DNA from: Callorhinchus milii
Lineage: Eukaryota
DNA length: 64,000 nt
Direction of reading: 5' to 3'
Assembly: GCF_018977255.1 (NCBI RefSeq)
Contig: NW_024704742.1
Coordinates: forward strand, 138,386,001 to 138,450,000
Position 1 is the stretch's first letter. Every line of letters starts with the position of its first letter. A program made the position numbers and the translations under genes. Under the pieces are notes generated by a model. That model was not told the origin of the DNA, made no database searches, and saw only the letters and a program-made list of their open reading frames with translations. This document shows, one piece after another, positions 3,023-29,007 of this stretch.

Positions 3023-3089
3023 ATGAAGTTGTTTGTGTTTTTAGTACTTTTTTTATTTGAGTCACATTTGGCAAGTGGACAGAATGGAG
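3023..3089 (+). CDS. Receptor coding exon 1: signal peptide [22 protein letters not shown]
   Basis: ATG with A at -3, hydrophobic core, strong donor G|GTAAGT at 3090, phase 1 joins GAT (D) with the next exon. Likely acceptor ttgtttcag at 2883. Confidence 0.85.
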
Positions 3090-6000
3090 GTAAGTATAAT
3101 AATAATAATCTTTGCATTTGACATCTCAAAGCACTTCACAGAATACACTGTAAAGTGAATTGACTATGTATTTTGTGGGTGAAACACGACACCCAGTTGT
3201 GAATGGCAGTGTCCCACAAACAGTCGTGGATTGAATGACTAAATTATTAGTTCATGAATTATCCAAAATTACACCCCATCTTAAAATTTAATACCTTGAT
3301 CTTAAGCCACAGAATACTAAATAATAATCCTTTTTTTGATATAGAGCCTATAATGCCAAAACATTTCCAAATGAGTCACAGGTCATTGCTCTAAGGCATA
3401 GTGATATTTTGTTTATAGGAAGGTCAGCCAATTTATGCACAGAAACTTCCCCCAATCATGATGTGGATGATTGATTTATCTGGAGGATCGTTGGGCATGA
3501 TACCAGGAGAAACATGTCTTTTCCAATTGTGTTGCCAGATCTGTAAAGTTGCCCTGAACAGCTCACTTCACTCCTCCCAACACAGCATCCCTTCCCTCAT
3601 TACCGCATTGGAGGGTCAGGCCTGGCTGGGTTGTGAGCTCAAGTCCTCACATGGGCCTTCACAATCTTCATAATAATAACAGTAATAATCCTTGCATTTG
3701 ATATAGCCCCTTATCATGTCTTTGAGACGTCTTAAAGGGCTTTACAGAATATAGTGTAAAGTAAATTGGCTGTGTATTCTGTGGGCCAAACGCAGCAGTC
3801 AATTGCCCACAGCAGTGTCCCACAAACAGTCGTGGATTGAGTGACCAAATTTTTTTAAAATTATAATTTTTGAAAAGATTAGTATCCCTGGAATGGTGAT
3901 CTACTAATCAACTAACAACTGGGTTCCTACTCACTGCTGGTAAACAGAGGCATGTGGAATAAGGAAACTTGCCCAGTGTTTTGCCCTACTGGGAATCGAA
4001 CCCAGATCCTCTCGCTTGTGAGGCGAGCGCTCTAACCACTGAGCTACAGGACTCCACTGCATTGAGGACAGATGCCTAGGAATTTGCAGTTGGTGGAATA
4101 GTTGGTTTGTCAACAAACACACATTTCTGACAGTAAAATACAGACTATTGTTTCCATGTGTTAAGTGTGGAGAAAGCAAAATAAACTGTTTTCATAACCA
4201 ATCAGTCCACCCAAGTCAGTTTGAAGCCTGCTAAGCCAGGCTATAAGGCTATAATACGTACGGGATAGATTGTCTTTGTATCTTTGCAGCCTGTGTCCTC
4301 TCCCACACAGGCTCTGTAGCCTGACATCACACACATCCTCACTCAGATCCATTGGCTCCCCAACCCACAGCGGATCAAGTTCAAGATCCTCTTTCGCACC
4401 TTATAAATCCCTTCAATGTCTCACCCCACAGTATATAGTCTGGGATGTGACATGTGCAACCTCCTTCAACCCTACCAACCTGGCCACTCCCTTCGCTCAG
4501 CGAACACCAACCTGCTGCACCAGGATCTGGCCTGCTTCACGTCCCCTGCCTCACTCGCCCCACTATCAATGGGCAGGCCTTCCGCCACTCTGCACCTATC
4601 CTCTGGAACTCCATCCCACAGTCCCTCCGTCTCGCCTCCTCCCTCGCCACCTTCAAGACCCACCTCGAGACCCTCCTCTTCGACCGTGCTTTCGATCTAT
4701 CTGCGCCACCCCTAGCCCCCTCCCCTTCCCCATCCCGACCCTCAGCTCGGTTCCGTAACTCTGTCTGTCCAGGGCCTTGGGACGTCCTTCCAACGTGAAA
4801 GGTGCTATACACATGTAATTTTGTTGTTGTTGTTGCTGCATGCCTTCTACCCTCCCTGCCCACATTGGCTGGGAGTCATTCTGCCTCCACTCTCTGGAAT
4901 TGCATCCCAAAGACCCTCCAACTCGCTCCCTCGTCTCTTTCAAGACACACCTCAAAACCTACATCTTTGACCGTGCTTTCGGTCACCGTGTTGCATTTGG
5001 AACAGGAAAAGAGCTGGGACATGTAACAGCCAATCTGACACCTGAGGCAGGACGCTGTGACTTTCCAAATTGTTTCTACCCAAGCAGCTTGTATTTCAAG
5101 CTGGGATGTCTTTCTGGCGGGATGGATGTGTCATTTGTTGTGGTTGTTGTTGTACTGGCCTGAACTTATTAATTGCACCAGAGATAGAACCACATTGCTT
5201 TCTGTCCACCTTGGCTTTTCAAGTCACTAACCAGTAGATCACTAGCTCACTGTCCAGCGCTTTGGGACGTCCTCCCGACTTGAAAGGCGCTCTATAAATG
5301 GAATCTTGTTGTTGTTGTTGTAGAGCGATTGGCCCATTGGGAGGACATCTCAAAGTGCTTAAATATCAATGAGATATGTAGGGGGAGAAATAATTAATAA
5401 TAATAATCCCTGTATTTGATACAGCGCTTTATCATGTCGCCAAGACGTCCCCAAGGGCTTCACAGGATATATACTATAAGTGGATTCACTTTGTATTTTG
5501 TGGGCAAAACTCGGCAGCTATGTTACAAACAGCCATGGAGTGAGCGAACAATTTTATTTGGAGAGAGAAACTCCTTCTCTTTTTAAATCTTGCCGCGGGA
5601 TCTTTAACATCCACCTGAACAGGTGGACGGGATCTCGGTTTAACGTCTTGTCCAAAGGACGGCAAACCCACAATTCAATTCCCCCCCACCCCACCCAGCA
5701 CTGCATTGGAGCATCAGCATAGACTGTAATTCAAGTCCAGACGTGGGGCTTGAGCCAACAACCTTCTGACTCAGAGGCGATAGAGAGAGCGTTACCACTG
5801 AGCCAGACTGATGCAGCTTCAAGTTATTGAATAGAAGAGGCTTTGAGTTTATTGCAAGTATAAACAGGACTTTGGCTCCTATCACAAATCATAGTTGATT
5901 TATTTTAGGTGATTTACTTGGCACCAGAATAGCACAATAGAGTGGTGTGGTGGTTTCCATAGTGCAATGTGTAAGCCAGGTCATTGCTGAGTATTCCAGG

Positions 6001-9000
6001 GCTCTGCTGGTGATGGACCAGCCAGCCTGGTTCATCGGCAGGACCTGGAGAGGTAGACTCAGCTCTTGTCAATACTGTGAGTCAAAGCCCTAACGGGGAG
6101 GGTGGTCCTAGCTGGACAAGCAACGGGAAGCCAGGCAGTGCTCTCAATGGCCAAGCTGTGTGGGTTTAGCTGGTTAGACTCCAGCAGTTATCCCAACACG
6201 CACTCTGGGCACTCTGGGCTCCCCCAAGCCTTAGCTTTCACCAACCTGCGCCTAGTACTCTCCAGACTTAGATAAGCAGGATGTGTCTCTCCAGAGAGAA
6301 AGTGCGCATTCCATTCCAGACACAGAGAAATTTCATGCGTAGGTGGGAAACATATGTAGAATTCTCATGTTTGGCATTGGATACTTGTCACCATGATGAA
6401 GGGTTCCTATATACCCACACCTGGAATGTAATAATAATCCTTGCATTTGATATAGCGCTTTTCATGTCTTCGAGACGTCCCAAAGCGCTTCACAGAATAT
6501 ACTGTAAAGTGAATTGACTGTATATTTGTGGGCGAACGCAGCAGCCAATTGTGCACAGCAGCGTCCCACAAACAGTCATGAATTGAAAATGACCAATTTA
6601 TTATTGTTTTGTTGTTTTGGAGGGATTATTATTAGGCTCTGTGTGGAATAAGTGGGACACTGTTGTGCGCAATTGGCTCCCACATTCCGTCCACAAAATG
6701 TGCAATTTTACAGCATCCAATTCACTTTACAGGATAATCTGTGAAGCACTTTGAGACGTCTCAACGACGATGTAATGCGCTGTATCAAATGCAAGGATTC
6801 AGTCAATTCACCTTACAATATATATGCCAAGAGAAAGCAAGTTACGTCAAGACAAGTAACCATTTCTGGAGGCTGATGCTTTATGTATTTAGCGCCGTCT
6901 ACTGTCAGATTGATATAATGCATAAGAAGGGCACACAGACAGAGGCTCGTAATGCCACCTTGTGCAGAATAGTGGAAAATTCTTAGTCAGGAACTGGGAG
7001 CTGCTGTGAAATTTCAGGCCTTGGGCATCAAACATCCCTTAACAACAGCAGCAGCAAAATTACATTTATATAATCCTGTAATCCTGTAATTTAGTGGTTA
7101 GAGCACTCGCGAGCGAGGGGACCTGGGTTCGATACGTTGGGCAAGTTTCCTTACTCCACACACCTCTGGTTATCTAGCAGCAGTAAGTAGGAACCCGGTT
7201 GTTAGTCGATTGGCAGATCACTTTCTGGGGGTAATAATCCCTTCAAAAAAATAATAAATTGGTCACTCAATTTATGACTGTTTGTGGTACACTGCTGTAT
7301 GCAATTGGCTGCCGCGTTTCACCCACAAAATACACAAAGTCAATTCACTTTACGGTGTATCCTGTGAAACGCTTTGAGACATCTCAACGACATGACTAAC
7401 AATCAGATTCCTACTTACTGCTAAGTATCCAGAGGAGTGTGGAGTAAGGAAACTTGCCCAACATTTCGACCTGCCTGGGAATCAAACCCAGGTCCTTTCT
7501 CTTGCGATACACATTACAATGCATTACTGTTGTATTATTGTACTAACTGTGTGTTTCTGTAGATCCTCCAGAAGCACCTACTGATCTACGTTGCCTATCC
7601 CAGAGCCTCGCCACTATCGTCTGTTCATGGAACCCAAACACAAGCCTCGATACCACCTACACTGTCTGCCAGGAGTGAGTCTTTATTACTTTCCAATGGG
7701 GCAGTTCGGAAGCCCTCGAACAACAAACATGTGCCTCTTACCATCCGCTCACTGCTGGGAAGAACAGCCCATGACTTCTCTCAATTCATTGTGAAAGCGC
7801 CAATTCGATTTCAAGATCCTCATCTTTGCCTTCAAATCCCTTCATGTCCTGGCACCTCCCTATCTCTCCGACCTGCTTGTTCCCCAACCCACTATCCGCT
7901 TCCTCCCCTTGACTGGCTCAGGCCTCCTGCATGTCCCTTGTCCCCTCCGTTGCACCATTGTTAGCAGCGCTTTCAGCCACTAAGCCCAGAAACTTTGGAA
8001 CACTCTTCCCCTATCCCTCCGCCTTGCCCTCTCCTCCCCCATCTTCAGATCACGCCTGAAGACCTTCCCTCGACCGTGCCTAAGGTCATTTCCCCTCCCC
8101 CTGGCTTGGTGTCAAGCTCTAGGACGCTGCCCTGTGTGAGGGGCGCTGTGTAAATGCAAGTTATTGTTGTCGTTTTCTTTTGGCGTGTGTGTTTCTCAGA
8201 CTATAGCATTCAAGTAATTATCAAAAAAAAGATCAAAATAGCCTCTCTGCCCCCACCCTTTGAAACTTCATCCCACAGTCTCTTTGCCTCGCCTTCTTCT
8301 CCTTCAGGCATGTCTCAAGACCCTCCTCTTCGACCGCGCCTTCAGCCACCCTCCTACCCCTCCCCTCCCTCCCCTCCACACCTCCTTCGAGGTTGTCCAG
8401 CATCTTGGGACGTCCTCCCAATGTGAAAGGCTCCGTGTAAATGTAATGTGTTGTTGTTGAATGAGATATGTTTAGTGTTTACAAGCTGTATTGTGTTTTA
8501 CTCTTCGTAGCAGTTCAAGAAAATGCACCTCAGTGGGAAGAAACACCTCTGTTGAATTACAGTTTTCTCTGTTCAAGACTTTGCAAATAAGAATCATTGC
8601 TAATAATTCCCTGGGCACACAGGAGTCGGATATATTTACAGTGAACGAAAGCAATATCGGTAAGTATTCTTAGTCTCTAAGAAACCAGTCGAAGTCTGAA
8701 GGGATGTGTGGAAAGTGGGATCCTGTAGTGTAGTGGTTAGCGTGCTCATCTCGCAAGAGGGAGGACCAGCGTTCAATTCCCAGGGCAGGGCAAGACCTTA
8801 GGCAACTCCCTTGGCTCGGCCTCGGGCTCCGCCACTGTTAATCGCTCCGAGACGCCTTCCAGCATGAAGGGCGCTATGTAAATGCGAGTTGTTGTTGTTG
8901 TAACTTGCTTGGCTGTTTATCTTGGATCTTGTGTTTCAGTGTTTCAGCCTCACACACCGCGTATGGTCAGGGTGTTCAGAGAGGAATCAGACCTGGAGCT

Positions 9001-12000
9001 GCTGGTGGAGTGGAGCGATGGTGCTGATATGTACAGCTTTGATTTAAATCTCCTGTTCCAGATCCAGGTCATCCAAACACAGAGCCTGAAGGAGGTCGGG
9101 ACAGTAAGTCACATTACACCTCAAGAAAATTTAAGCACGACTTTCATCGTCCATGTTTATTAGCAAATATTATTGTAGTCCTGTAGCTCAGTGGTTAGAG
9201 CACGTGCCTCGCAAGCGAGAGGACCCGGGTTCGATTCCGGGGCAGCGTGAAATGTTCGGCAAGTTTCCTTACTCCACACAACTCTGTTTACCAGCAGTGA
9301 GTAGGAAGCCAATTGATTTGTGGGGGTAATAATCCCTCCAAAAATATAAAAATAAAAAAAACATGTGGCCACTTAACTCACAATCTGCTTAATCTTATGA
9401 AATGGTGAATCACTTCATGGGCCAAATGGTCTCCTCCGTTCTATTCCGATATTACGATTGTGTTTCCGTGGGATAAAACGCAGTATGTAGTTTGGGACAC
9501 GGCATGTCAAACAACTGCAGGATGGTGGAAGGCGAACTGCATGAACCTTGGTCTTCTTTTGCCAATAAAATTCTTAAGTTCTGCCCCAAAAGGCTGTGGA
9601 TTATGGCTGGATCCATTCACATTGTCCAGAATGAGGTGGAGAGATGTTTGTTAGGTCAGGGATCCAGGGATATGGGCAAGGGCGGGTAATTGGAGATGAG
9701 GTACAGATCAGCCATGGTCTTATCAAATGGTGGAACAGGCTCGAAGGGCTGAATGGCCTCCTCCTGTTCTTATATATATATGCATCCAGTTCCTGTTTGG
9801 ATTTTAGGGACTTCTGATAAAAAAAAGTCTGAGAGCATTTGTCAATAGCCTCTAGTGTACAGAGGCTGCTGCCTTGAGAATTGAATCACCAGTTCCTGGG
9901 TTTGTTACTGCAGTTTCCAACAGCTTTGGTTGGTTCTTGCAGGGGAATCGCAGTGTGACTCTGAACCCTGGACATAACCGAATACTGCAGTGGAGCTGGC
10001 TGACAGAGATGCGTTACAATGCACGTCTCACTCTGTGAGAGTCCGCTGTATCAGCAATGAACCTCAGTACCTGTTTGCTGGGATCAAAGCTTGGAGTGAC
10101 TGGAGCCCGTGGTCAACATTGGATGGTAAACTGCTCATTCACCTTCATCTCCATCTCTATCCTGCGGACTGGGGGGTGGGAGGGGTGGAAATGGGCTGTG
10201 GAATCTTGTAGTCAGTGGTTAGAGCACTTGCTCGCAAGTAAGAGGACCTTGGTTCGATTCCGGGCAGGGCAAAACGTTAGGCAAGTTTCCTTACTTCGCA
10301 AGCCTCTGTTTACCTAACAGTAAATAGGAACCCTGTGTTAGTCGATTGGCAGATCGCTTTCCGGGAGTAATAGTCCCTTCAAAAAAAAAAGAATAATTTG
10401 GTCACTCAATCCACGACTGTCTGTGGGACGCTGCTGTGCACAATTGGCTGCCGGCGTTTCGCCCCACAATATATACAGTCAATTCAGGTTACAGTATACC
10501 CTGTGAAGCGCTTTGAGACGTCTCAAAGACATGATAAGGCGCAATATCAAATGCAAGGATTATTATTATTAATCGTGAGTCCATAGAAATAGAGAGGGGT
10601 GGGGGGGGAAGGGGGAGGGGAGATTATAGAGTTGACACCGTTGTTGTTATTCTTTCTGCAGGAGAGGATGTGTCCAATCAAACCAGTAACCATATCTACC
10701 CTAAAGACGCGATCGTCCTGGAAGCAGGAACCAATATGACATTTTGCTGCATCGCTGGTGTGGGAAGTTTTGTTAAAAGACTCACTTATCAAACTATCTG
10801 ATACCACTGATTAAACTGAGCAACAGGAGCACTGCCATCGAAGTGAAGAATCTGACATTCCTCTTAGAAGCCGGAGGCAATGTGTTTTGTGAGCTATCTT
10901 CAGATATCACGGGAGCAGTTATATTTGTTGAAGTACGTATGTCAGTGAGGGGCCTGAACTTATAGAAACTCTCAGAAAGCCACTCAGGGCTTGAGTAGAA
11001 TCATAGAGTCTTATAACACAGAAAAAGGCTGTTTGGCCCATTGTGGCTGTGTTGGCTCTTTGAAAGAGCTACCATCTAGTCCCACTCCCCCGCTCTTACC
11101 CCATCTAGTCCCATTCCCCCACTCTTACCCCATCTAGTCCCACTCCCCCGCTCTTACCCCATCTAGTCCCACTCCCCCGCTCTTACCCCATCTAGTCTCA
11201 CTCCCCCGCGTCTTACCCCATCTAGTCCCACTCCCCCGTCTTACCCCATCTAGTCCCACTCCCCCGCTCTTACCCCATCTAGTCCCCACTCCCCCGCTCT
11301 TACCCAAGTGGTCCCACTCCCCCGCTCTTACCCCATCTAGTCCCACTCCCCCCGCTCTTACCCCATCTAGTCCCACTCCCCCGCTCTTACCCCATCTAGT
11401 CCCACTCCCCTGCTCTTACCCCAACTAGTCCTACTCCCCCGCTCTTACCCCACAGCCCTGCACATGAGATGGCAGAAGGTAGTTTCCTCCAATGTTCTGG
11501 CCAATAATCCCTCAGATACATTGGTCACTTTGGGGCTGATGGTGGGAAATTGCTCTGTGCAAAATCTCGCAACATGAAAGACGCAATACTAATGTGATTT
11601 GTTGTTGTCGTTAAGTGTAGTGACTGTAATTTGTAGGTAATTTGGGTGGAGAGCTCCAGTGTAAAAAGAGCAGGGAATGGAGCTAACTCCAGATAGAGAG
11701 CCTGCGATGACTGTCAAACCCCAGTGATTGTAGGGGAAGAAGACCTGACAAGCCTCTCATTGCAATTGCTCACACACACAGCTCTGTCCCCTTTGTGGAC
11801 TATTTCCCCTTTTCTAAACCACACGTACCAGGCCCGTCTCAAACTTGCCAACTTACTTTCATCTCCAAAGTCCTGGAATGTATTGTTGCCAACCAACTTT
11901 GCTCACACTTTGCTCCAGTGCCTACTCGAGCCCTTCCTGTCTGGTGTCCACCCTGTCCACTGTACGGAGACAGTGATTTTGTCAAAATCACACCCACAAC

Positions 12001-15000: not shown

Positions 15001-18000
15001 AATCACTCTGTTGTGGTTGGACCCAGTGAATTACAAAGGCATTTGGCTGATGTGTGAGATTGTGATCAGCGAAGAGGGGGGTAAAAGCACGTTGGTAAGT
15101 TACCATCCACAGGGTAGATACTGTAACCTTTAAATAATAATAATACTTGCATTTGATATATTTAAGCACTTTTACACATTAGGACAATATTTCCAGGTAT
15201 GATATAAAATGCTTGGATGAATGTTTAATACCGATATAAAATCAGCTTTTAAATTAAGACAATTCAAGACTGTTTTCCTAAATTTCGTACAACCTGACAG
15301 TTTTAAATGGGGTTCAGGAGCAGAGAGACCTGGGGGTTCACCTACACAGGTGTTTGAAGGTGGCAGAACAGGTTGATCGAGCTGTTAAAAACATATGGGA
15401 TCCTTGGCTTTATAAATAGAGGCATCGAATACAAAAGCAAGAAAGTTCTGCTAAACCTTTACAAGTCACTGGTTAAGCCTCAGCTGGAATATTGTGTCCA
15501 ATTCTGGGCATCGCACTGTAGGAAGGATATCAAGGCCTTGGAGAGGGTGCAGAGGAGATTTACCAGAATGGTTCCAGGGATGACGGACTTCAGTTATATG
15601 GAGAGACTTGAGAAGCTGAGATTGTTCTCCTTAGAGCAGAGAAGGTTAAGGAGAGATTCAATACAGGTGTTCAAAATTATGAAGGGTTTTGAATAGGGAG
15701 AAACTGTTTCCACTGGCGGTAACCAGAGGACACAGATTTAAGATTATTGGCAAAAGAACCAGGGGAGGGACTAGTTGGGGTAAGAGCGGGGGAGTGGGAC
15801 TAGATGGGAAAAGAGCGGGGGAGTGGGACTAGTTGGGGTAAGAGCGGGGGAGTGGGACTAGATGGGAAAAGAGCGGGGGAGTGGGACTAGTTGGCAACTC
15901 TTCCAAAGAGCCGGCACAGGCTCGATGGGCTAAATGGCCTCCTTCTATGTTGTAAAATTCTGTGATTCTATGACCTTAAATTTTCAAGCCTGAGAGCCTG
16001 AGAAACATTGGGGCCTTTGTGCCCTAACTGTTGGCTAACATAGCACTGTCAGTTATCAGTTTGTAATAACGTTACGTTTCAGCTCAACTACTCGGTACGT
16101 GGAGAATCGCCGTATAAAAGCCACGTGGTACAGATAGACCGATTGCGAGCCAACACATTGTACACCATCAGAGCCCGCTACACGTCTCAGCACTTCTGGA
16201 AGTGGAGTGAATGGAGTAACACAGTGACTGTGCGAACCCAGCAAGCTGGTGAGTGACGAGCGGTCGCTAAACATGTCAGCATTCTCCCACAGAGGGTCCG
16301 CAGGACGAGGGTGAGAGAGGCTTGAGAAAGGTGAGAGGACGCTGGGATTATGGGGTCCTGTAGCTCAGTGGTTAGAGCCCTCGCCTCGCAAGCGAGAGGA
16401 CCCGGGTTTGATTCCCGGGCAGGAGGCGAAACATTGGGCAAGTTTCCTTACTCCACACGCCTCTGTTTACCAGCAGTGAGTAGGATCCTGGTCGTTAGTC
16501 AATTAGTGGATCGCTTTCTGTGGGGTAATAATCCCTTCAAAATAAAATTGTTCACTCAATCCACGACTGTTTGTGGGCCGCTGCTGTGTGTAATTGGCTT
16601 CCACGTTTCGCCCACAAAATATACGGTTAATCCACTTTACAGTATATTCTGTGAAGCGTTGTCTCAACGACGTGATGAGACGCTGTATCAAATGCGAGGA
16701 TTATTATTATTATTAGATTGACGCTTGTCAAAGAGGAAGAAGAAGGGGAGGGAGAAGGATGAGCTTAGGTCAAAAACTAACAGCTTCTCTGCTCCAGCCA
16801 AAAAAGCCCTGACTTCTGCCGTCTCTCTTCTCATTGTGACTGAATCTTTGCGTGAGATTCTACCCGAAGGACATTGTGTAAACCGTGTTGTTGTTTCAAT
16901 CCTAGCTCCATCAGTGGGTGTGGACGTCTGGAGAGACATTAGTGTGAATGGTTCCAGACGGATGGTCACGCTTTTCTGGAAGGTAAGGATTATACTACAG
17001 GGTGTCCACAAAGTTCCTGTTGTCCTTTGTTTTGTTTTTGCCTAACAGTGCACTGAGCAACAACTGAAATATAATAATAATAATCCTTGCATTTGATATA
17101 GCGCCTTATCACATTAAGACTTCTTAAAGGGCTTCACAGGATATACTATAAAATGTAGTGACTGTATATTTTGTGGGTGAAACGCTGCAGCCAATTGCGC
17201 ACAGCAGTGTCCCACATTATTGTAGCTTCTCAATTTTTCAGCACTAGTATTTCTCGGTGGCCGTGCCTTCGGTCCCTACACTCCGAAACTCTGGAACTCT
17301 CTCCCTCAATCCCTCCGCCTTGCTCCCCTCCCTCCCTCCTCACCTCCAAATCGTGCTTAAAGACGTTCCTTTTTGATCGTGCTGACGGTCACCTCCTCCT
17401 TGCCTCTCCCCCTGGCTCAGGGTCAGACCCCCCCCCCCACCGTCGAGCACCCCAGGACGCTAGCCTGTGTGAAAGGCTCTACATAAATGCAAGTTGCTGT
17501 CGTCGTTCTCTTGAGGCTAAGGCCATGAGGAATCTGCTGCTCTAACCCTCTGTGTCCTGCTCACAGTCCCTGTCAGACGCTGAGGCTAATGGGCCAATCG
17601 AGTCCTACACAGTGACATGGAAGAAGGTGGGAGATGGTGCTGTGAGCAGTGAGGAGGCCGTGAGCACCAGCACAGAGCTGGAGCTGGACACAGCTGCCTA
17701 CAGCGTCAGTGTGGTCGCCAGGAACAGTGCTGGACTCTCTCCTCGCTCCACTATCACCATCCCTCCTCACAGAGGTAAGTGGGTCACTTCGGGGCTCAGC
17801 TGCCTCCAAAGTGTCCAACGTGTAATAATAATAATCCTGGCATTTCACACAGCGGCTTTTTAAGGACGGAGAGAGAGAGAGAGATACGCACACACTCATG
17901 GAAACAGAGAGATACACACACACACACACACACACACAGGGAAACAGAGAGACACACACACTCATGGAAACAGACACACACACACACACTCATGGAAAAA

Positions 18001-21000
18001 GAGAGACACACACTCATGGAAACAGAGAGAGGGACACACACACACACACATTCAGGGACAGAGAGAGAGAGAGACACACACACAGGGAAACAGACACACA
18101 CACACTCAGAGACAGAGAGAGAGACACATATACACAGGGAAACAGAGAGAGACACACACACACACACAATCAGAGACAGACAGAGAGAGATACACACACT
18201 CACACACACTCAGAGACAGAGAGACACACACACACTCGGACATAGAGAGAAAGACACACTCAGGGACAGAGACAGACACACACACATACTCAGAGACAGA
18301 GAGAGACACATACACACAGGGAAACAGAGAGACACACACACCCACACTCGGACATAGAGATAAAGACACACTCAGGGACAGAGAGAGAGAGACACACACA
18401 CACACAATCAGAGACAGACAGAGAGAGATACACACACACACACACACAGGGGAACAGAGAGAGACACACATACACTCACACTCGGACATAGAGAGAAAGA
18501 CACATTCAGGGACAGAGAGAGACACACACACACAATCAGAGACAGACAGAGATACACACACACACACACACAGGGAAACAGAGAGACACACATACACCCA
18601 CACTCGGACATAGAGAGAAAGACACATTCAGGGACAGAGAGAGAGAGAGACACACATACACTCAGAGACAGAGAAAAAGAGACACACACACACAGGGAAA
18701 CAGAGAGAGAGAGAGACACACACCCATACAGATACACAGGGAAATAGAGAGACACACATACACACACACTCAGGGAAACAGAGAGAGAGAGACACCCACA
18801 CATGCAGTTAGAGAGATACACAGAGACAGACAGACAGAGACAGACAGACAGAGAAGCGTAGGAGAGACACAGAGAGTATGCTGTTTCCATGACCACACCT
18901 CTGCCGGTTTCTCTGCTTCTCCAGGTGATGTAGCTGTGGAGGTGGAGAGAGTGACTGGTTCGGAAGGTGGATTCAACTTAAGTTGGGAGAGCAGACACCA
19001 CAGGAGCTGTGGCTACACTGTGCAGTGGTGCAGACCCCCTGACTGCCAGCCAGAGTGGCTCAAATTACCCTCCAACCTCCGGCACGCCGTCATCCGATCA
19101 GGTAAAGTGTTTGGAGCATTTTTTGGCATTTAAAAATGCGGTCACTCAATCCACGGCTATTTGTGGGGACGCTGCTGTGCACAATTGGCTGCCGAGTTTC
19201 ACTCACAAAATATAGTCAATTCACTTTACAATATATCCTGTGAAGCGCTTTGAGACGTCTCGAAGACGTGATAAGGCGCTATATCAAATGCAAGGAATAT
19301 TATTATTTTCTGCCCGTCTCTGGCATCTGTTACCACACGTTCGACAACAACAACCACTGTGCCCGTCACACAGGCAGCGTCCCAGAGCGCTTGACAGTGG
19401 AGGAGCACGACACAGAGCCGGGGGAGGGGGGAGGTGACCATAGGCACGGTTGAAGCGGAAGCGCGACCTGAAGATGGGGAAGGAGGCGGAGGGAGGGACA
19501 GAGGGAGAGTGTTCCAGAGTTAAAGCCAGTGACAAAGATTAGTTTGATCTCAGTAGAGCGTTTAGCTCACAGATGGTTTGGATGTAGAGGGTAATCTGCT
19601 CTATTTGATCTCATGTCTCCCAACTGGCCTCCCGCCTTCCCATCAAAGTATCGAGCTGTTTTGCAATGAACCTAGAGCCTTTCACGTCAGGAAGATGTCT
19701 CAAAGCGCTTCACAGGATATACTGTAAAATGTAGTGACTGTGTATTTCATAGTGAGCAAATGTTTGCACAGCGACAACCTGCAAACAGCCAGGAAGTTAA
19801 TAATAATAAGACCAATTTTATCTGGGGAATTGTTGGCCAGGACAACGAGAGAGAAAGAGAAAGAGAGAAAGATTAACTCTCTTTTCGAATAGTATCGCAA
19901 GATCTTTAATGTCCACCTGAACAGATAACGACACCTTGCATTTATATAGCATCCCTCACATGAGTAATGTCTAGGAGCGTGGTATAGCAGTGTGGGTTGT
20001 TGCTCAGCTGGATAAAGAGAGGAGGTGACTGAAGGCACGGTCGAAGAGGAAACACTTTAAACACTTTGAGACGACCACTCAGATGTCCTTGGTTTTATGT
20101 CTCAGGGCTCCTCCCAGCTCTGTCAACCTGGACTGTGAGCTCAAACGCCCAACCCACAACCTCCTGACTCAGGTGAGAGTTTCACCACCTGAGCCAGGCT
20201 GACATAAAGGCATGATATAAATGTAAGTTGTTGTTGATGCATGTTAAGCTGCCCCCCCCCCCCCCCCAGGGCTTGTTGTAATCTGCTCTGCGCAGGACAG
20301 TTTTCATTTGATTTTCTTATTCTCCCACAGATGTCTTTAAACCTGGAGTGCGCTACAACTTCTCAGTGTATGAGTGCAGGCCGGACGGTGATTACTTACT
20401 GGAGGAACAGGTTGGCTACACAAAAGAACTAGGTGAGCATCAGGTACATGGGACTGAGGGAGACTGAGGCAGAGATTGAGACAGACAGAGAGAGACTGAG
20501 ACAGACAGAGACTGAGACAGACAGAGACTTAGAGAGACTGAGACAGAGAGAGACTGAGACAGAGAGACTGAGACAGAAACAGGCAGAGAGAGAGACTGAG
20601 ACAGAGAGAGAGTGAAACAGAGAGAGACTGAGACAGAAAGAGAGACTGGGGCAGAGAGAAACTGTGAGAGAATGTCTGACAGAGAGTATGTTTGAAACAG
20701 ACAGGCAGACAGAAACTGTATTTGTGAGAGAGAAAGATAGAGTGACAGAGACTGAGAGAGAGAGAGTTTATGAGAGAGATTGAGACTGTGTGGGACAGAT
20801 AGACAGAGTGTGTGAGCTGGAGAGAGACAGAGCTACCAGTAAAAGTCTCTTCATTGTCTGGTGGTGTTTAGCGCCCACTGATGGGCCTGAGGTGACAGTG
20901 AGGGAGACGGCGGGGGATTGGATTTGGCTGCAGTGGGAGGACATCCCCCAGGACAAGCTACGAGGGTTTATTGAGGGATTTAACATCTATTATATCAAGA

Positions 21001-21864
21001 GCAACGCCTCGTCCCCAGCCTGGCTCAGCCAGCCCGCAAGTACGTCTGGTCTCTGTTATCTTAGCTTAGTAACACAGCATGTGTGAGATACACACACACC
21101 CATGCGCACACACACACGTGCACACACACACACATGCACTCACGCGCACGCAAGGGGGGTGGGGGGGGAGGGTGGTCATTTCAAATAGATGGCAGGGAGG
21201 GTGGGTATCTGGAGGGAAGAAGAGGGTGATGAGGGTGTCTGGAGGTGATGTGAAGATGCTGTATGCCCCTTCAGCGTTCCCACATTTCTGACTATCCTTT
21301 CTCTTTCCTCTTCACCCGTTACCCCAGAGACGATACGAGCCTCGGAGAAGAAGATCTTTAAGATCAATGGCCTGAATCCTGGCACAACGTACAACATCGC
21401 TGTGAGCGCCTTCACTGGAGGAGGGGAGGGTCCGGTCAAACTGACCATGGTCACTACCCTGAACAGCCGTGAGTTACCCAGCACCCTTCCCCCACTCCCC
21501 CACTAGCCTTCAGTTACCCTCACACTACCCCCTCCCCCTCAGTTACCCCACTGCCCCCCCCAGCCCTCAGTTCCCCCACACATTGTCCCCCAGGTAGTCT
21601 GGTTCCTGAGCCAGTTCAGTGTGCAGTATTCCAGGGCACTGCTGATGACAGCACAGCTCAGCCTCGCTCAACGGGGAGAGTGGTCCTCGCTGGACAAGTA
21701 GCAGGAAAGCTTGTCAGACAGAGATATCAATGACCAACTGGTTTAACTGGTTGGACTCCAGCAGTTACCCCAACACACTCTCTGGGCTCCCCCCAAGCCT
21801 TGGCTCTTGCCAACCTGTGCCTAATACTCTCCGGAATTAGGTAAACAGGATGCCTCCCTCCAGG

Positions 21865-21895
<31 letters not shown>

Positions 21896-24800
21896 CGCAT
21901 TCCATCCCAACAATCTATCTCTGGGATTCCCATGTGTAGGTGGAAGGCAGGGAATTCTCAGTTTGGTTTAGAGACTCTTAAGCAACAGTGATGGGTTTGT
22001 GTGTGTGTCAGATACCCGGCTGGGCAAAAAAAAAGCTCCCGGCTTTGCTTAGTCACATGCACTCTCACCACGGGATCAGGAGGATGTGGATTCAAGCCCC
22101 CCCCCCCACCCCTTACATCAGGGTCTCTGAGCTCACAGTCCAGGCTGACGTTCCAGCACAGCGATGGGGGGGGGAACGAGAGGGAGATGCATTTTCAGAG
22201 ACTCCGTCCTTTGGATGAGACATTAAACCAAGTCTGTGTGTACTCATGTGGAGTCCTATAGCTTAGTGGTTAGACACTGGGGTTTAATAATCCCTTCAAA
22301 AAGAGAAGGCAGTTTCTCTCTCCTGATGACCTGGCAGCTTGGGAATCAAACCCGTGACCTCTCACTTGCGAAGGAATCTAACCACGGAACTACAGGACTC
22401 CACTGTGTTGTGTGGTGTGGATCAGTGTCTGACTGTACTGACTGTTCTCTCCTCTCCCCTCAGCCCTCACCCTGATCCTGGGCATCACTGTACCTCTCCT
22501 CCTGGCCCTAATACTGGGACTGATGCTCAGTGTCTTCTGCTATCGCAAACAGGAATGGTAAGTTCCTCTCCACCTTCCCTTCCCCCCCCCCCCGCTCCCC
22601 CCCCACCGCCTCTCTCTGTCCCCTTCACCAGATATGTCCACAGGTCTGAAATACCTCCTAGTTTTATCCTCCAACACCATATTGTCCCACTCGTCGTCAC
22701 ACTCTTCTACAAATCCCTTCACGTCCTGGCACCTCCCGACCTCTCTGACCTACTTACTCCCCAACCCACAACCCGCTGCCTCCACTCGACTGGCTCCGGC
22801 CTCTCTCTTTGTGGAGTCCTGTAGCTCAGTGGTTAGAGCACTCGCTTTGCCAGTGAGAGACCTGAGTTCAATTCCAGGCAGAGGGCGAAACCTTGGGCAA
22901 GTTTCCTTACTCCACACAGAGCCTAATAATAATCCCTCCAAAACCAAAAACAATAATAAATTGGTCATTTTCAATCTACGACTGTTTGTGGGACATTGCT
23001 GTGCGCAATTGGCTGCCGCGTTCGCCCACAAATATACAGTCAATTCACTTTACAGTGTGTTCTGTGAAGCGCTTTGGGACGTCCTCCCGACATGAAAAGC
23101 GCTATATCAAATGCAAGGATTATTATTATTATTATTATTGTGCTCGTCCCCTCTGTTCCACCATTGGTGGCTGCGCTTTCAGCCACTACGCCCGGAAACT
23201 CCCTCTATCCCTCCCTCCGGCTTGTCGCCTCCTTCCCCATCTCAGATCGCGCCTGACCATCTTCCTCTTCGACCGTGCCTACCATGACCTCCCCCTCCCC
23301 CGGCTCGGTGTCGTGCTCCACCGCTGTCAGGCTCTGGGACGGTGCCCTGCGTGGGGGACGCTGTGTAAACGCAAATTGTTGTCTTGAAATGTAAGTAACG
23401 GCGAGGTGTTTGTGTGATGTAGTGTGTAGTGTGTGTGTAGAGTGACTGCCTGTGCGCAGTTCGCTTCTGTGACCCTCTGATCACTGAACAACACTTTCTG
23501 TCTTATCCCCGTCTGCTTATAGGATCAAAGAGAGCTTTTATCCTGACATTCCCGACCCCAATAACAGCAAAGTTCTGCAGGATGGAAATTTCTTTCAGGT
23601 ATGGCCCATTTTGCATGTATGTGCATACGTGTGTCTGAGTGTGTGTGTGTGTGCCTGTGTGCGCACATGTGCATATCTGTGTGTATGTGCGCGTGTGCCT
23701 TTGTGTGCATCGTGTGTGTGTGCATGTGTGCCTGTGTTCGCACATGTGCGTCTGTGCGTGTGCCTGTGTGTGTGTGTGCGTGTGTATGTGTGCGCGTGTG
23801 TGTATGTTCGCATATGTGCATGTGTGTGTGCGTGTGTGTGTGAAACCTACCTATCTGCAAAATGGATTGCAATGGCAGAATTTGGAGTCCTGTGGTGTAC
23901 TGGTTCGAGAGAGCGAGAGGACCCGGGTTTGATTCCCGGGCAGAGCAAAACACTGAGCAAGTTTCCTTACTCCACACACCTCTGATTACCAGCAGTGAGT
24001 AGGGACCCGGTTGTTAGTCAATTGGCAGATCACTTTCCAGGGTAATAATCCCTTCAAGAAAATAATAATAATAATTTGGTCACTTCAATCCACGACTGTT
24101 TGTGGGGACACTGCTGTGTACAATTGGCTGCCGCGTTTCACCCGCAAAATACACAGTCATTACACTTTACAGTATATTCTGTGAAGCGCTTTGAGACGTC
24201 TCGAAGATGTGATGAGGCGCTTTATCAAATGCAAGGATTATTGTTATTATTACACTACTTACTGGCTGCTTTGTTCTCCCACAAAATACAGTCATTACAC
24301 TTGATAACAAGTAGCTGAAGGGCTGTGAGACACATTGACCTGATGGCTGCTGTATGGAGCGTGAGGATGATGGCATTGGGGCCCTTACTTGTCCTGTTGT
24401 TGGTTTGTTCCCTCCAGGGAGTCACCACCTGCAGTACGCTGGAGCCCAGGGACTGCATCCCCAACGAGGTGCAGGTGGTGGAGGGCAGACAGCTGGCGAT
24501 GGAGGGCAGGAAGGGCAGCCTGTACGAGTCAATCCCTGACGACACATCCAACCAGGAGAGCCAGAGCCAAGGCGTGCTGTCCTACACCCCACAGCGGGTA
24601 TCAACCGATACCAACCTGCCCTCCAACACCTCGGGCCGCACAAACCTAGCCTTCGACGTCTCCTCTCTGCCGCCCTCGCCTCCGTGCCCGAGCCAGGTCA
24701 CCTACTCCACTATCCAGAGCTCTGGGTACCAGCGGCAGGGCAGGCCGGGGCCCGAGCAACCACAGGCGCAGACAGATATCGTTGTGAAGTCTGGTTACCA

Positions 24801-25065
24801 GCCCCAGATCCACTCCCACACCCCCCCAAGTGCTGCCCCTCAGGACCTCTCCTCCCCAGAGGTATCCCTGCCCACACACTGCGGGTACAAGCCCCAGATG
24901 CAGCCTGACAGCCTGGGCATCGCTGACCAGCAGCCCCCCATCACCACCCCCATCGGCAGCCCCACATCCGTCAATTCCCAAACATTCCTGCTCGCAGAGC
25001 AAGAGAGCGCTGAGCTCCCAGCCGGGAACAGGAGCTGGCCTCTCTCCTCCTTCTTCAACACATGA
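3023..25065 (+). CDS. OSMR: LIFR/OSMR-family (gp130-type) cytokine receptor, 19 coding exons, about 1080 aa. OSMR by synteny, LIFR-like by architecture. Two apparent -1 frameshifts.
   Basis: Join 3023-3089,7563-7674,8511-8659,8940-9103,9943-10125,10662-10936,13165-13294,14561-14718,14949-15094,16083-16248,16906-16982,17567-17774,18925-19101,20331-20432,20872-21039,21328-21468,22464-22557,23523-23598,24418-25065. All introns are GT-AG and phases match once 1 nt is restored in exons 5 and 6. Signal peptide, two WSxWS motifs (WSDWS, WSEWS), Ig domain, three FnIII, TM, Box1 PDIPDP and YxxQ motifs are present. The family is certain; the OSMR versus LIFR orthology rests on synteny. Confidence 0.7.
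3683..4055 (-). mobile_element. tRNA-derived SINE, full length. Other full or partial copies at about 1-117+, 636-965+, 1987-2347-, 3096-3250-, 6429-6650-, 7082-7395+, 7396-7506-, 9176-9375+
   Basis: Same head/core/tail consensus, about 350-370 bp. Confidence 0.9.
4320..4835 (+). mobile_element. L2-clade LINE 3' fragment. Similar fragments at about 7790-8460, 11730-12820, 17250-17505, 37610-37880, 39170-39600, 42670-43125, 46265-46650, 62640-62920, 63650-64000 (+) and 29165-29510, 41256-41640, 59600-59860 (-)
   Basis: Encodes the L2 ORF2 C-terminus (RPTIGGxAF...APxLWNSIP...[14 protein letters not shown]), with stem-loop tail and (TTG)n. Confidence 0.88.
5555..5805 (-). mobile_element. Older Deu-domain SINE (SacSINE1/AmnSINE1-like). 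Related fragments at about 2560-2675, 19740-19925, 20075-20205, 22075-22235, 29690-29940, 37130-37510, 46850-47010, 50130-50320, 52040-52280
   Basis: tggctcagtggt...ctctgagtcagaagg...gacgttaaaccgag...caggtggatgttaaagatccc Deu-type motifs. Confidence 0.7.
7563..7674 (+). CDS. Receptor exon 2 (D1 first half) [25 protein letters not shown]...YTVCQ
   Basis: AG/GTGAGT boundaries. The C-x9-C-x-W pattern resembles LIFR APHDLKC...WNCSW. Confidence 0.9.
8511..8659 (+). CDS. Receptor exon 3 (D1 second half) SSRKCTSVG...[20 protein letters not shown]
   Basis: TAGCAG (NAGNAG) acceptor, GTAAGT donor, phase 2 to 1. Resembles LIFR ...SKFTLNEQNV. Confidence 0.9.
8940..9103 (+). CDS. Receptor exon 4 (D2) VFQPHTP...LLVEWSDG...FQIQVI
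   Basis: AG/GTAAGT, phase 1 to 0, FnIII pattern. Confidence 0.9.
9943..10125 (+). CDS. Receptor exon 5 (D2, WSDWS), with a 1-nt deletion at about 10012
   Basis: QWSWLTEM[P][12 protein letters not shown]...WSDWSPW matches LIFR HWSWASDMPLEC...WSDWSP only if one C is restored after ATG 10009-10011. Confidence 0.85.
10199..10572 (+). mobile_element. tRNA-derived SINE, full length
   Basis: Head ggaatcttgtagtcagtggttagagc through tail aaatgcaagga(tta)n. Confidence 0.9.
10662..10936 (+). CDS. Receptor exon 6 (Ig-like D3), with a 1-nt deletion at about 10791-10793
   Basis: [19 protein letters not shown]... continues as [18 protein letters not shown]...GNVFCE...GAVIFV in a shifted frame. Donor C|GTATGT chosen for phase 1. 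Confidence 0.8.
11071..11455 (+). repeat. Minisatellite, about 30-bp unit (ccatctagtcccactcccccgctcttacc) x about 13
   Basis: Direct tandem copies inside a CR1 3' tail. The reverse-complement array is at about 15765-15893. Confidence 0.95.
12905..13095. mobile_element. Palindromic Penelope-like terminal remnant. A half copy at 47283-47395 and a core fragment at 2676-2722
   Basis: Arms ctcagcaggtcaggcagcatctatgga / tccatagatgctgcctgacctgctgag enclose ctgacaa...gaaaacgtt. The family assignment is from memory of shark Penelope-derived repeats. Confidence 0.6.
13165..13294 (+). CDS. Receptor exon 7 (D4) [26 protein letters not shown]...YTL
   Basis: Typical CETxDLKxxxCxWxPG of LIFR/OSMR, with AG/GT boundaries. 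Confidence 0.93.
13360..14235 (+). mobile_element. L2-clade LINE 3' fragment (about 0.9 kb)
   Basis: Degenerate ORF2 (LNVNKTE...RNLGVLFD...LHWLPI...FKILVLTFK) plus tail. Confidence 0.88.
14561..14718 (+). CDS. Receptor exon 8 (D4) ...[25 protein letters not shown]
   Basis: YNxxLxAxNPLG motif, AG/GTGAGT. Confidence 0.93.
14949..15094 (+). CDS. Receptor exon 9 (D5) VHPFAPDNL...ITLLW...LMCEI
   Basis: FnIII pattern, AG/GTAAGT. Confidence 0.92.
15300..15975 (+). mobile_element. CR1 LINE 3' fragment with tail. Other CR1 pieces at about 9600-9775, 11000-11465, 14750-14895, 43130-43480, 47555-47985, 53175-53320, 59070-59330
   Basis: [12 protein letters not shown]...[10 protein letters not shown]...[14 protein letters not shown] and the CR1 3'UTR (gatgggc.aatggcctccttct...ttctatga). 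Confidence 0.9.
16083..16248 (+). CDS. Receptor exon 10 (D5, WSEWS) ...[19 protein letters not shown]
   Basis: HFWKWSEWS as in OSMR, AG/GTGAGT. Confidence 0.95.
16352..16716 (+). mobile_element. tRNA-derived SINE, full length. Further + copies at about 14238-14425, 19130-19306, 23884-24252, 30175-30540
   Basis: Consensus match, tRNA-Ala-like head. Confidence 0.9.
16906..16982 (+). CDS. Receptor exon 11 (D6) [10 protein letters not shown]...VTLFWK
   Basis: DVWR...VTLFWK as in OSMR, AG/GTAAGG. Confidence 0.93.
17567..17774 (+). CDS. Receptor exon 12 (D6) [18 protein letters not shown]...[11 protein letters not shown]
   Basis: EANGxIxxY and VxAxNSxGxSP motifs, AG/GTAAGT. Confidence 0.95.
17868..18880. 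repeat. Compound (AG)n/(AC)n simple repeat. Others at about 20455-20830, 23610-23845, 32530-32950, 43483-43905, 53340-53680, 56680-56980, 57160-57450
   Basis: Direct inspection. Confidence 0.95.
18925..19101 (+). CDS. Receptor exon 13 (D7) ...[14 protein letters not shown]...GYTVQWC...EWLKLP
   Basis: EGGFxLSW (OSMR-like) and YxVxWC. Confidence 0.95.
20331..20432 (+). CDS. Receptor exon 14 [16 protein letters not shown]...GYTKEL
   Basis: FxPGVRYxF and GYxxEL motifs. Confidence 0.95.
   Translation: MSLNLECATTSQCMSAGRTVITYWRNRLATQKN
20872..21039 (+). CDS. Receptor exon 15 (D8) APTDGPEV...[22 protein letters not shown]
   Basis: WEDIPxxxLRGF as in LIFR. Donor A|GTACGT. Confidence 0.9.
21328..21468 (+). 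CDS. Receptor exon 16 (D8) ...[23 protein letters not shown]...VTTLNS
   Basis: AFTxGGEGP motif, AG/GTGAGT. Confidence 0.93.
22464..22557 (+). CDS. Receptor exon 17 (transmembrane) [31 protein letters not shown]
   Basis: Hydrophobic helix followed by CYRKxEW (LIFR-like), AG/GTAAGT. Confidence 0.95.
22813..23139 (+). mobile_element. tRNA-derived SINE (short subfamily) inserted into an L2 3' fragment (about 22650-23385)
   Basis: Near-identical to 1496-1811. L2 sequence resumes on both sides. Confidence 0.9.
23523..23598 (+). CDS. Receptor exon 18 (Box1) [19 protein letters not shown]
   Basis: JAK-binding Box1 PxxPxP. Confidence 0.95.
24418..25065 (+). CDS. Receptor terminal exon 19 (cytoplasmic tail: Box2, YSTI, YQRQ, YQPQ, YKPQ)
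   Basis: Acceptor cctccag at 24417. [16 protein letters not shown] resembles LIFR TLEMNPCTPNNVEVLE. Stop TGA at 25063-25065. Confidence 0.93.
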   Translation, partial: GVTTCSTLEPRDCIPNEVQVVEGRQLAMEGRKGSLYESIPDDTSNQESQSQGVLSYTPQRVSTDTNLPSNTSGRTNLAFDVSSLPPSPPCPSQVTYSTIQSSGYQRQGRPGPEQPQAQTDIVVKSGYQPQIHSHTPPSAAPQDLSSPEVSLPTHCGYKPQMQPDSLGIADQQPPITTPIGSPTSVNSQTFLLAEQESAELPAGNRSWPLSSFFNT

Positions 25066-29001: not shown

Positions 29002-29007
29002 AATAAA
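29002..29007 (+). terminator. Candidate polyadenylation signal (AATAAA) of the receptor gene
   Basis: AATAAA in an AU-rich non-repeat tract, followed by a GT-rich downstream element (ggtttctgttgtgttggt). Confidence 0.5.

Follow-up and report, generated by a model that had tools for sequence, protein, structure and literature searches.

A single LIFR/OSMR receptor gene beside RICTOR in Callorhinchus milii, a likely unduplicated pro-orthologue of LIFR and OSMR

Is a receptor gene that sits in the position of OSMR and looks like LIFR one of these two genes, a mixture of them, or something that precedes both? The question is raised by a locus of the chimaera Callorhinchus milii, in a stretch of 64,000 nucleotides (contig NW_024704742.1, positions 138,386,001 to 138,450,000), which we will call the window. 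On the letters of the window alone, the gene had been predicted to be an OSMR orthologue, possibly a LIFR/OSMR mosaic, from the time before OSMR lost the first domain (D1) of its N-terminal cytokine-binding module. A simpler third option, absent from that original prediction, is an unduplicated co-orthologue of both genes. After comparing trees, neighbours and domains, we think it quite likely that the chimaera gene is the single, unduplicated LIFR/OSMR pro-orthologue of cartilaginous fishes, in the position and orientation of OSMR.

The gene and its assembly

The gene is real. Its 19 coding exons (Table 1) specify 1079 amino acids, and GT-AG borders are present at all 16 exon pairs of the window that are joined directly; a single frame of this length requires exons 5 and 6 to be taken from the upstream copy of a repeat described below. 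The UniRef protein that matches the gene, P0001, comes from a model that omits exon 17 and with it the transmembrane helix. It matches the Pfam domains LIFR_N, LIFR_D2, LIF-R_Ig-like, LIFR_D4 and fn3 above all their curated cut-offs, hence far beyond chance; the match to PF17971 (LIFR_D2) has an E-value of 2.3e-24, and D1 is detected by PF18207 with 49 bits against a cut-off of 24.1. The domains follow each other in the LIFR-type order D1-D8, then a transmembrane helix and Box 1, and the receptor set is complete: an Ig domain, a cytokine-binding module with WSXWS, three FN3 domains, a single transmembrane segment and Box 1. The tail encoded by exon 19 has a SHP2/SOCS3-type tyrosine site, four YxxQ sites and a GSP motif. 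Both predicted D1 exons are present, 261 nt in total with phase-1 introns on either side, and every string quoted in the original prediction is found in the window where it was placed. A second ATG, in frame with exon 1, lies upstream at 2984.

Table 1. Features of the window, in positions counted from its first letter
Feature	Position	Strand	Remark
Window part of downstream repeat copy	1..31319	+	
Exon 1	3023..3089	+	signal peptide, phase-1 donor; start of UniRef model P0001
Exon 2	7563..7674	+	D1 first half (LIFR_N), 112 nt
Exon 3	8511..8659	+	D1 second half, 149 nt
Exon 4	8940..9103	+	D2 first half
Exon 5	9943..10125	+	D2 second half, first WSXWS; 1 base missing behind 10011 in the assembly
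Exon 6	10662..10932	+	Ig-like D3 (cytokine site III docking domain); 1 base missing behind 10791 and 1 behind 10929 in the assembly
Exon 7	13165..13294	+	D4 first half
Exon 8	14561..14718	+	D4 second half
Exon 9	14949..15094	+	D5 first half
Exon 10	16083..16248	+	D5 second half, second WSXWS
Exon 11	16906..16982	+	FN3 D6 start
Exon 12	17567..17774	+	D6 remainder
Exon 13	18925..19101	+	D7 start
Exon 14	20331..20432	+	D7 remainder
Exon 15	20872..21039	+	D8 start
Exon 16	21328..21468	+	D8 remainder
Exon 17	22464..22557	+	transmembrane helix
Exon 18	23523..23598	+	Box 1 (JAK-binding proline motif)
Exon 19	24418..25065	+	cytoplasmic tail including Box 2 region and stop codon
RICTOR 3' coding exons	35686..44993	-	more exons further right; stop codon not located

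As assembled, the window copy has a stop at codon 196 and is one base shorter than the upstream copy at each of the three sites marked in Table 1. A pseudogene reading of these frameshifts was rejected because all independent sequencing runs that cover the sites carry the missing base, and only the intact form was seen in them. The whole gene is present twice, in a 48.8-kb direct tandem repeat (G000:C1:138319369-138368142 upstream and 138368143-138417319 downstream) that is probably a false, haplotype duplication. Both copies lie on one 139-Mb contig and are joined without an N gap, as they would if the repeat were a real, very recent duplication leaving the chimaera with two LIFR-type copies. 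We consider this improbable. The copies are 98.2-99.5% identical, gap letters (307) outnumber substitutions (193), each copy has private frameshifts, and the independent runs mix letters of either copy, as alleles would; contigs drop variants, however, so that the evidence from the runs falls short of proof. Users of the assembly should expect frameshift errors at the locus and a duplication that is probably false.

Neighbours and copy number

RICTOR was identified by PF14665 at 43803-44993, with further exons reaching down to the left end of the span in Table 1. The strand order is EGFLAM forward, LIFR/OSMR gene forward and RICTOR reverse, i.e. the gene is convergent with RICTOR, tail-to-tail, and on the same strand as EGFLAM. 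Human OSMR lies tail-to-tail with RICTOR, and human LIFR is inverted relative to it and next to EGFLAM. The chimaera gene is without such a LIFR-type inversion, and the predicted OSMR position and orientation hold.

A divergently transcribed LIFR further upstream, which it had been suggested to look for, did not appear in 200 kb searched by tblastn with 83 proteins. Ten domain profiles run over the 464 kb from EGFLAM to RICTOR detected neither another gene of this kind nor remains of one, and no divergent LIFR turned up in another 100 kb downstream. Genome-wide, the two near-identical copies account for all four matches of LIFR_D2, which is common to LIFR and OSMR, and for 39 of the 41 matches of P0001. 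Six other weak loci were compared: four are gp130-, IL31RA- or CSF3R-like, one has no match, and the sixth has a weak FN3-type match with 42-45 bits to both groups. For other cartilaginous fishes a single copy was judged from protein databases: each of 11 elasmobranch species has one protein, and among 33 proteins found with a lungfish OSMR query the only named cartilaginous-fish protein is the product of the same single gene. LIFR and OSMR are both present in bichir, sturgeon, gar, bowfin, coelacanth and lungfish.

The gene is already annotated, as Callorhinchus LIFR-like. A preprint (10.1101/2022.04.21.489004) states for the great white shark that the LIFR/OSMR duplication did not occur and that LIFR lies beside RICTOR; for the human strand order it speaks of an 'opposite orientation'. 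Since the single copy beside RICTOR is thus in print for that shark, our main claim is not new.

Relationship to LIFR and OSMR

In the main tree (52 rows, 651 columns) the cartilaginous gene, LIFR and OSMR form one clade against gp130, CSF3R and IL12RB2 (support 100/100). Within it, cartilaginous fishes (100/99), OSMR (96/96) and LIFR (76/89) are separate groups. The chimaera gene groups with its orthologues from sharks and rays. It falls outside crown OSMR and, in the best tree, outside the bony LIFR clade; it is weakly sister to LIFR plus OSMR, the branch joining these two apart from cartilaginous fishes having a support of 65/53. This topology, that of a pro-orthologue, is best under three matrices and in four of five subset or mixture runs, the mixture model having been run on a 40-row subset. 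With the gene's own internal paralogue as root it obtains a RELL value of 0.81 versus 0.17 and 0.02, the last for the plain LIFR tree. D2 alone has no signal. An unconstrained tree of the three-domain module recovered neither LIFR nor OSMR as a clade; its root fell implausibly inside tetrapod LIFR, and it was discarded for rooting.

A pro-orthologue would descend from an ancestor preceding the LIFR/OSMR duplication in the bony-vertebrate stem and would therefore be equally orthologous to LIFR and OSMR. The ancestral gene would have been located between EGFLAM and RICTOR, oriented as the chimaera gene is now. In bony vertebrates, tandem duplication with inversion may then have given rise to LIFR, which preserved the old structure, and the copy left in place would have become OSMR by losing D1 and much of the tail. 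The N-terminus of the ancestor would also have carried an additional Ig domain, lost independently in the chimaera gene.

If the gene were instead a true OSMR orthologue, as originally predicted, the duplication would predate the split of cartilaginous and bony vertebrates, D1 and the LIFR-type tail would have been kept, and an inverted LIFR would have been lost in all cartilaginous fishes. We find this unlikely. Position and orientation do match those of OSMR, but they are equally expected if OSMR simply remained where the ancestral gene had been, and an extra gene loss is required that left no trace in the 464 kb. On the whole core the tree joining cartilaginous fishes to OSMR is not rejected (p-AU 0.38; 0.32-0.39 across matrices and 0.48 under the mixture model), while D3-D5 with paralogue rooting reject it (p-AU 0.028). 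For D6-Box 1 it is the best tree, by 2.7 log units, a difference short of significance (p-AU 0.147 for the pro-orthologue). It is also the best tree with a hagfish 'LIFR-like' protein as sole outgroup, a rooting that we set aside because the hagfish protein is a long branch. At a 50% threshold, cartilaginous fishes share four consensus columns with OSMR only and 13 with LIFR only, and in 33 others LIFR and OSMR agree with each other and differ from cartilaginous fishes; none is polarised in favour of OSMR orthology. What stands of the predicted history is the retention of D1 and of a tail of LIFR type, both lost afterwards in OSMR.

The names given in databases, 'LIFR-like' or 'LIF receptor subunit alpha a', point to a plain LIFR orthologue. 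Such a gene would need an older duplication, the loss of OSMR in cartilaginous fishes and an inversion of LIFR into the place of OSMR, and we regard it as very unlikely. Apart from the names, it is favoured by the LIFR-type architecture and tail and by the top PDB match, LIFR with 499 bits against 351 for OSMR, to which D1 contributes a part. The shared features are, however, retained ancestral ones, and amphibian and alligator OSMR tails end in a decayed GSP motif. The original prediction had named an inverted plain LIFR as the case that would refute it; the corresponding tree is the worst of the three in all whole-core runs (p-AU 0.055-0.080 across matrices, 0.032-0.079 in the subset or mixture runs and 0.089 in a further whole-core test), with formal rejection only under the mixture model. 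Scarcely credible, finally, is a mosaic in which gene conversion or recombination combined domains of LIFR with domains of OSMR. The roots preferred by D3-D5 and D6-Box 1 do differ, but the latter preference is not significant, the genome contains no donor gene, and the mosaic claim fails because likelihood differences among topologies are below 3.5 log units in every domain and the motifs quoted in its favour are ancestral. Those called OSMR-like are indeed present, yet they are not specific to OSMR, since LIFR of fish or of reptiles, or gp130, also contains them.

Human LIFR (P0084; PDB 8D6A chain B) resembles the chimaera gene in D1-D2, Ig D3, D4-D5, three FN3 domains, transmembrane segment, Box 1, SHP2/SOCS3-type site, several YxxQ sites, GSP motif and C-terminal W-x-F (tail motifs as defined in PMC1963337), with 29-49% identity per domain. 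OSMR (PDB 8V2B chain C; lungfish P0088) shares genomic position, orientation and the D2 to D8 architecture, the lungfish protein with 30-43% identity per ectodomain domain. It differs in that D1, kept in the chimaera, is absent from all 16 OSMR-clade rows; a SHP2-type site is found in one of these 16 rows and an intact GSP motif in none, whereas the chimaera has both. The OSM-binding Trp of human and mouse, in the D4-equivalent loop, is absent in the chimaera, but it occurs in one of 16 aligned OSMR rows and is thus not a family-wide mark of OSMR. Nor can D1 loss serve as such a mark, since it is also absent from six of 16 LIFR-clade rows: LIFR of gar, bowfin and teleosts, including zebrafish (PMC1963337), is without it. 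The elasmobranch proteins named 'LIF receptor subunit alpha a' are direct orthologues (e.g. Heptranchias P0009, 43-75% identity per region).

An extra N-terminal domain and the ancestral receptor

The original description of the architecture as fully LIFR-like is correct in comparison with human LIFR. The shark, ray, lungfish and sturgeon relatives, however, have one more N-terminal Ig domain, which is gp130-like and which we call D0; the chimaera gene, lacking it, is not fully ancestral. D0 is present in ten of 11 elasmobranch proteins, the eleventh being a partial model, and gp130 D1 is the best match of the shark domain among solved structures (E 1.7e-4). No D0 exon was found in 464 kb of the chimaera, where the best profile match (i-E 0.23) was on the wrong strand and the profiles of D1-D8 found their exons. 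A search of the openly available literature found no published description of D0.

gp130/IL6ST, of the tall class I cytokine receptors, likewise combines an Ig domain, a cytokine-binding module (CBM) and three FN3 domains with a Box 1 that ends in the same D-P, but it contains one Ig-CBM module, while the LIFR/OSMR lineage has two, the first of them shortened in the chimaera. We lean towards a jawed-vertebrate LIFR/OSMR ancestor of nine domains, Ig-CBM-Ig-CBM-FN3x3, that arose by tandem duplication of a gp130-type Ig and cytokine-binding module. Sharks, rays, lungfish and sturgeons would have kept it complete, and elsewhere it would have been repeatedly trimmed from the N-terminus, with D0 lost in the chimaera, bichir and tetrapods, and D0 together with D1 lost in OSMR and, separately, in LIFR of gar, bowfin and teleosts. 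If the location of the chimaera gene is the original one, OSMR would be the copy that remained there and LIFR its inverted duplicate. D0 in shark, lungfish and sturgeon receptors would explain the origin of the double cytokine-binding module of LIFR, and a retained D0, resembling gp130 D1, might be a second dock for cytokine site III.

Judging from its conserved parts, the chimaera receptor probably works like LIFR. Site III of a four-helix cytokine of the LIF/OSM/CNTF class would dock on Ig D3 and site II on gp130; the heterodimer with gp130 would bring Box 1-bound JAKs together, and tail tyrosines would recruit STAT3 (YxxQ) and SHP2/SOCS3. The site III core of human LIFR, N313, I322 and G324 (PMC11557873), corresponds to N299, I308 and G310 in the chimaera. 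Four of nine listed site III contacts of human LIFR are identical (V326 in addition to these three), and those at S310, H284, V315, T317 and V362 differ. A search for ligand genes with the profile PF01291 gave no match anywhere, even in its controls, and so says nothing about the ligand.

Most likely, then, the gene shows the LIFR/OSMR pair in its state before the split and is not a hybrid of both, and the split itself dates most likely to the stem of bony vertebrates. For asking if LIF-type and OSM-type ligands both acted on the receptor before its division, the receptor of cartilaginous fishes is the natural reagent.

Gene model, locus and assembly

Exon-by-exon translation gave 19 coding exons and confirmed the gene of the original prediction, including its D1 exons, whose 112 and 149 nt make up the expected 261 nt between phase-1 introns. 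The gene is already annotated as LIFR-like. Its last exon (exon 19) is 100% identical to UniRef P0001, labelled Callorhinchus milii 'Leukemia inhibitory factor receptor-like', in which LIFR_N, LIFR_D2, the LIFR Ig domain, LIFR_D4 and fn3 pass the Pfam cut-offs.

Features of the locus and carriers of D0 (G000:C1, whole contig; L030, a stretch of that region; bare positions, window, which is G000:C1:138386001-138450000)
Feature	Position or protein	Strand	Remark
Chimaera gene	3023-25065	+	
In-frame ATG upstream	2984 (in 2940-3022)		start of P0001; surrounding sequence like the end of short repeats dispersed across the window
Transmembrane exon	22464-22557		real exon; P0001 skips it, with intronic sequence in its place, and has no TM helix
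RICTOR	from at least 35686	-	
EGFLAM (pikachurin)	138.02-138.05 Mb	+	FN3 exon and laminin G exons
Open frame inside EGFLAM	L030:6006-8195	+	730 codons, apparently large for an exon of EGFLAM; a single FN3 stretch that matches pikachurin, then a long stretch without Pfam match
Missing base	behind 10011		present at full covering depth in 4/4 runs
Missing base	behind 10791		present at full covering depth in 3/3 covering runs
Missing base	behind 10929		present at full covering depth in 3/4 runs; fourth contig piece stops at 10930
Direct tandem repeat	G000:C1:138319369-138417319 (ends at 31319)		48.8 kb, 98.2-99.5% identical
Inverted repeat (L006-L014)	G000:C1:138224890-138254123 and 138267793-138297427		~29 kb, 97-99% identical, beside a 25-N gap
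Repeats inside EGFLAM	beside N gaps at 138007293 and 138040227		2.5-3 kb
D0 carriers	P0003-P0007, P0009-P0013, P0015, P0017, P0018, P0085		~90 N-terminal residues after the signal peptide

The gene follows EGFLAM on the same strand and converges with RICTOR. In the spotted gar, rictorb is followed by osmr, lifra and egflam (PMC8042750, no strands stated), and an excerpt of 10.1101/2022.04.21.489004 describes human LIFR as oriented opposite to OSMR. The chimaera gene therefore occupies OSMR's seat and has OSMR's direction.

If the window copy is translated unmended, it stops at codon 196. The gene is present in full once more, 49 kb upstream and on that same strand; there exons 5 and 6 are intact and exon 19 has six one-base indels. 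Taking exons 5 and 6 from this upstream copy gives a single frame of 1079 aa. We compared 4 of the 24 listed sequencing runs, from two studies, over window 2800-11050. Because the covering runs show the missing bases, the three window frameshifts are assembly errors. Where the copies differ, the upstream copy's letter was seen at 7654 in one of four runs, at 8213 and 6850 in all three covering runs, and at 8111 in none listed. These mixed letters, together with 193 substitutions and 307 gap letters between the copies, suggest that two haplotypes were probably assembled one after the other as a false duplication, although the run contigs drop variants. The EGFLAM-gene region may contain several false duplications. 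In run X5, RNA by guess only, exonic places in exons 1, 2, 4, 5 and 6 have a depth of 151.4 and intronic ones about 8, and a contig of 1187 nt at that same depth contains exon 6. If the guess is right, this difference points to a spliced transcript.

Relation to LIFR and OSMR

The chimaera has no second LIFR/OSMR gene. In genome searches all four matches of PF17971, common to LIFR and OSMR, and 39 of the 41 matches of P0001 fell in the two near-identical copies; among six other weak loci, four were gp130-, IL31RA- or CSF3R-like, one was a weak FN3-type match and one had no hit. Profiles of D1-D8 and the tail, made from bony LIFR and OSMR, found neither a further exon nor a remnant across 464 kb, and hence no sign there of the divergent upstream LIFR that the original prediction proposed to look for. 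Protein searches gave one orthologue per species in 11 elasmobranch species. A lungfish OSMR query returned 33 proteins, the named ones including no further gene of cartilaginous fishes, and a quick tree of full-library hits had no unnamed protein branching at the OSMR base. Both LIFR and OSMR were found in bichir, sturgeon, gar, bowfin, coelacanth and lungfish; we call the bichir, sturgeon, bowfin, tarpon and knifefish rows 'OSMR' by where they fall in the tree. In their sources they are LIFR or LIFR-like, and a record under the name oncostatin M receptor occurs in the gar cluster alone. The ray-finned OSMR orthologues P0089, P0100, P0103, P0106, P0121 and P0137, mostly LIFR or LIFR-like by database name, have short tails with no more than one YxxQ, and their Box 1 is altered.

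A cartilaginous-fish sequence has been placed within an OSMR and LIFR clade (PMC6238376, in the text available). For the great white shark, the preprint 10.1101/2022.04.21.489004 says that the gene was not duplicated and that LIFR is the neighbour of RICTOR. The accessible parts of PMC8836542, PMC9601804 and PMC13203501 have no bearing on the question, and those of PMC12284397 name neither receptor. To the chimaera composite our trees added 51 of about 300 fetched proteins: 9 elasmobranchs, 16 LIFR, 16 OSMR and 10 outgroups. Isoforms, most teleosts and models that were only partial were omitted. The main tree, computed under LG+G4 from the 651 columns between D3 and Box 1, joins the chimaera to sharks and rays (100/99). 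OSMR forms a clade (96/96), LIFR a weak one (76/89), and the two join with cartilaginous fishes outside at only 65/53.

Cartilaginous fishes may stand outside LIFR and OSMR, beside OSMR as originally predicted, or beside LIFR. Fixed trees gave p-AU of 0.71-0.78, 0.32-0.39 and 0.055-0.080, respectively, and constrained searches 0.38 for the OSMR and 0.089 for the LIFR placement. The outside position was best in four of five further runs; with a hagfish protein as sole outgroup the OSMR placement was best. Under a C20 mixture with 40 rows, p-AU was 0.58, 0.48 and 0.032 in the same order. When each region was rooted by its nearest paralogue, D2 carried no signal, D3-D5 favoured the outside position (p-AU 0.955, against 0.028 for OSMR and 0.069 for LIFR), and D6-Box 1 put the OSMR placement ahead by 2.7 log units (outside position, p-AU 0.147); over all 749 columns RELL was 0.81 outside, 0.17 with OSMR and 0.02 with LIFR. 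On their own, these sequence trees are insufficient to settle the place of the gene. Parsimony bears on the choice as well, since an unduplicated co-orthologue of LIFR and OSMR needs one duplication and no loss, as opposed to one duplication and a traceless loss; trees and parsimony together favour the co-orthologue.

We rejected the LIFR/OSMR mosaic. Per-domain likelihood differences are all below 3.5, and the motifs are not OSMR-specific: in the alignment HFWKW occurs in 4/16 LIFR and 10/16 OSMR rows, WSEWS in 2/16, 6/16 and 4/10 outgroup rows, DVWR in 3/16 and 4/16, VTLFWK in 1/16 and 2/16, FNLSW in 3/16 and 0/16, and exact NVFCE in none. The PDIPDP aspartate, found in 8/10 outgroups, 4/16 OSMR and 0/16 LIFR rows, is therefore the ancestral state. 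For the most part, what looks like OSMR here is due to changes in human LIFR. Nor does loss of D1 mark OSMR, as had been supposed: D1 is absent from all 16 OSMR-clade rows and also from six of 16 LIFR-clade rows (gar, bowfin, four teleosts), and zebrafish lifr.a and lifr.b likewise lack it according to a passage of PMC1963337. The original observation is thus confirmed and its interpretation partly supported. What stands of the latter is the OSMR position and direction and the presence of D1 and a LIFR-type tail; the mosaic is rejected, and strict OSMR orthology is not favoured by trees and parsimony. Most likely the gene is a LIFR-like, pre-duplication receptor in OSMR's position.

Signalling features

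The chimaera protein has the LIFR-type domain layout, two WSXWS motifs, a TM helix, Box 1, a SHP2/SOCS3-type tyrosine site, four YxxQ sites and a GSP motif. By the established biology of the gp130 family it would pair with gp130 on a cytokine of the LIF/OSM/CNTF class, and the heterodimer would activate JAK and signal through STAT3 and SHP2. Of nine site III contacts in human LIFR it keeps four, among them the asparagine and the glycine by which the FXXK motif of the ligand is anchored (contacts and anchoring as described in an excerpt of PMC11557873). According to the available text of PMC6238376, cartilaginous fishes have three copies of gp130 as well as orthologues of OSM/LIF and of CNTF. 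Our own profile search with PF01291 gave no ligand gene, nor any hit in its controls.

An Ig domain ahead of D1

Ahead of D1, 14 of the 214 fetched proteins with D2 have a further Ig domain, D0: ten elasmobranchs, two sturgeons, one paddlefish copy and lungfish LIFR. The D0 of Heptranchias and lungfish passes the PF06328 cut-off, with sturgeon just under it (27.9 vs 28.8 bits). Its best PDB match is gp130 D1, and residues 31-116 are predicted with confidence to fold as an all-beta domain (block pLDDT 79-88). D0-D1-D2, D3-D4-D5 and a single-module hagfish protein form one clade against gp130 and its kin (97/90), a grouping that fits duplication of an Ig-CBM module within the gene. The hagfish protein, P0174 (Myxine 'LIFR-like', 732 aa), has a signal peptide, a single Ig-CBM module and a C-terminus that looks mis-modelled; no other outside sequence matches the D0 and the D3 profile as well as its Ig does, and its module groups with D3-D5 (97/88). 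It is a candidate single-module relative of LIFR.

A profile search of 464 kb found no D0 exon in the chimaera. The X5 contig has about 145 nt before exon 2, too short for exon 1 and an exon of about 270 nt, which would leave no room for D0 if one contig spans these exons. D0 is also missing from tetrapod and bichir LIFR models and from the second paddlefish model (P0016); the coelacanth LIFR model is truncated at the N-terminus. No report of D0 was found in the openly accessible main texts searched. The chimaera gene is not fully ancestral, and its chief interest lies in the nine-domain, probably ancestral layout present in its relatives.
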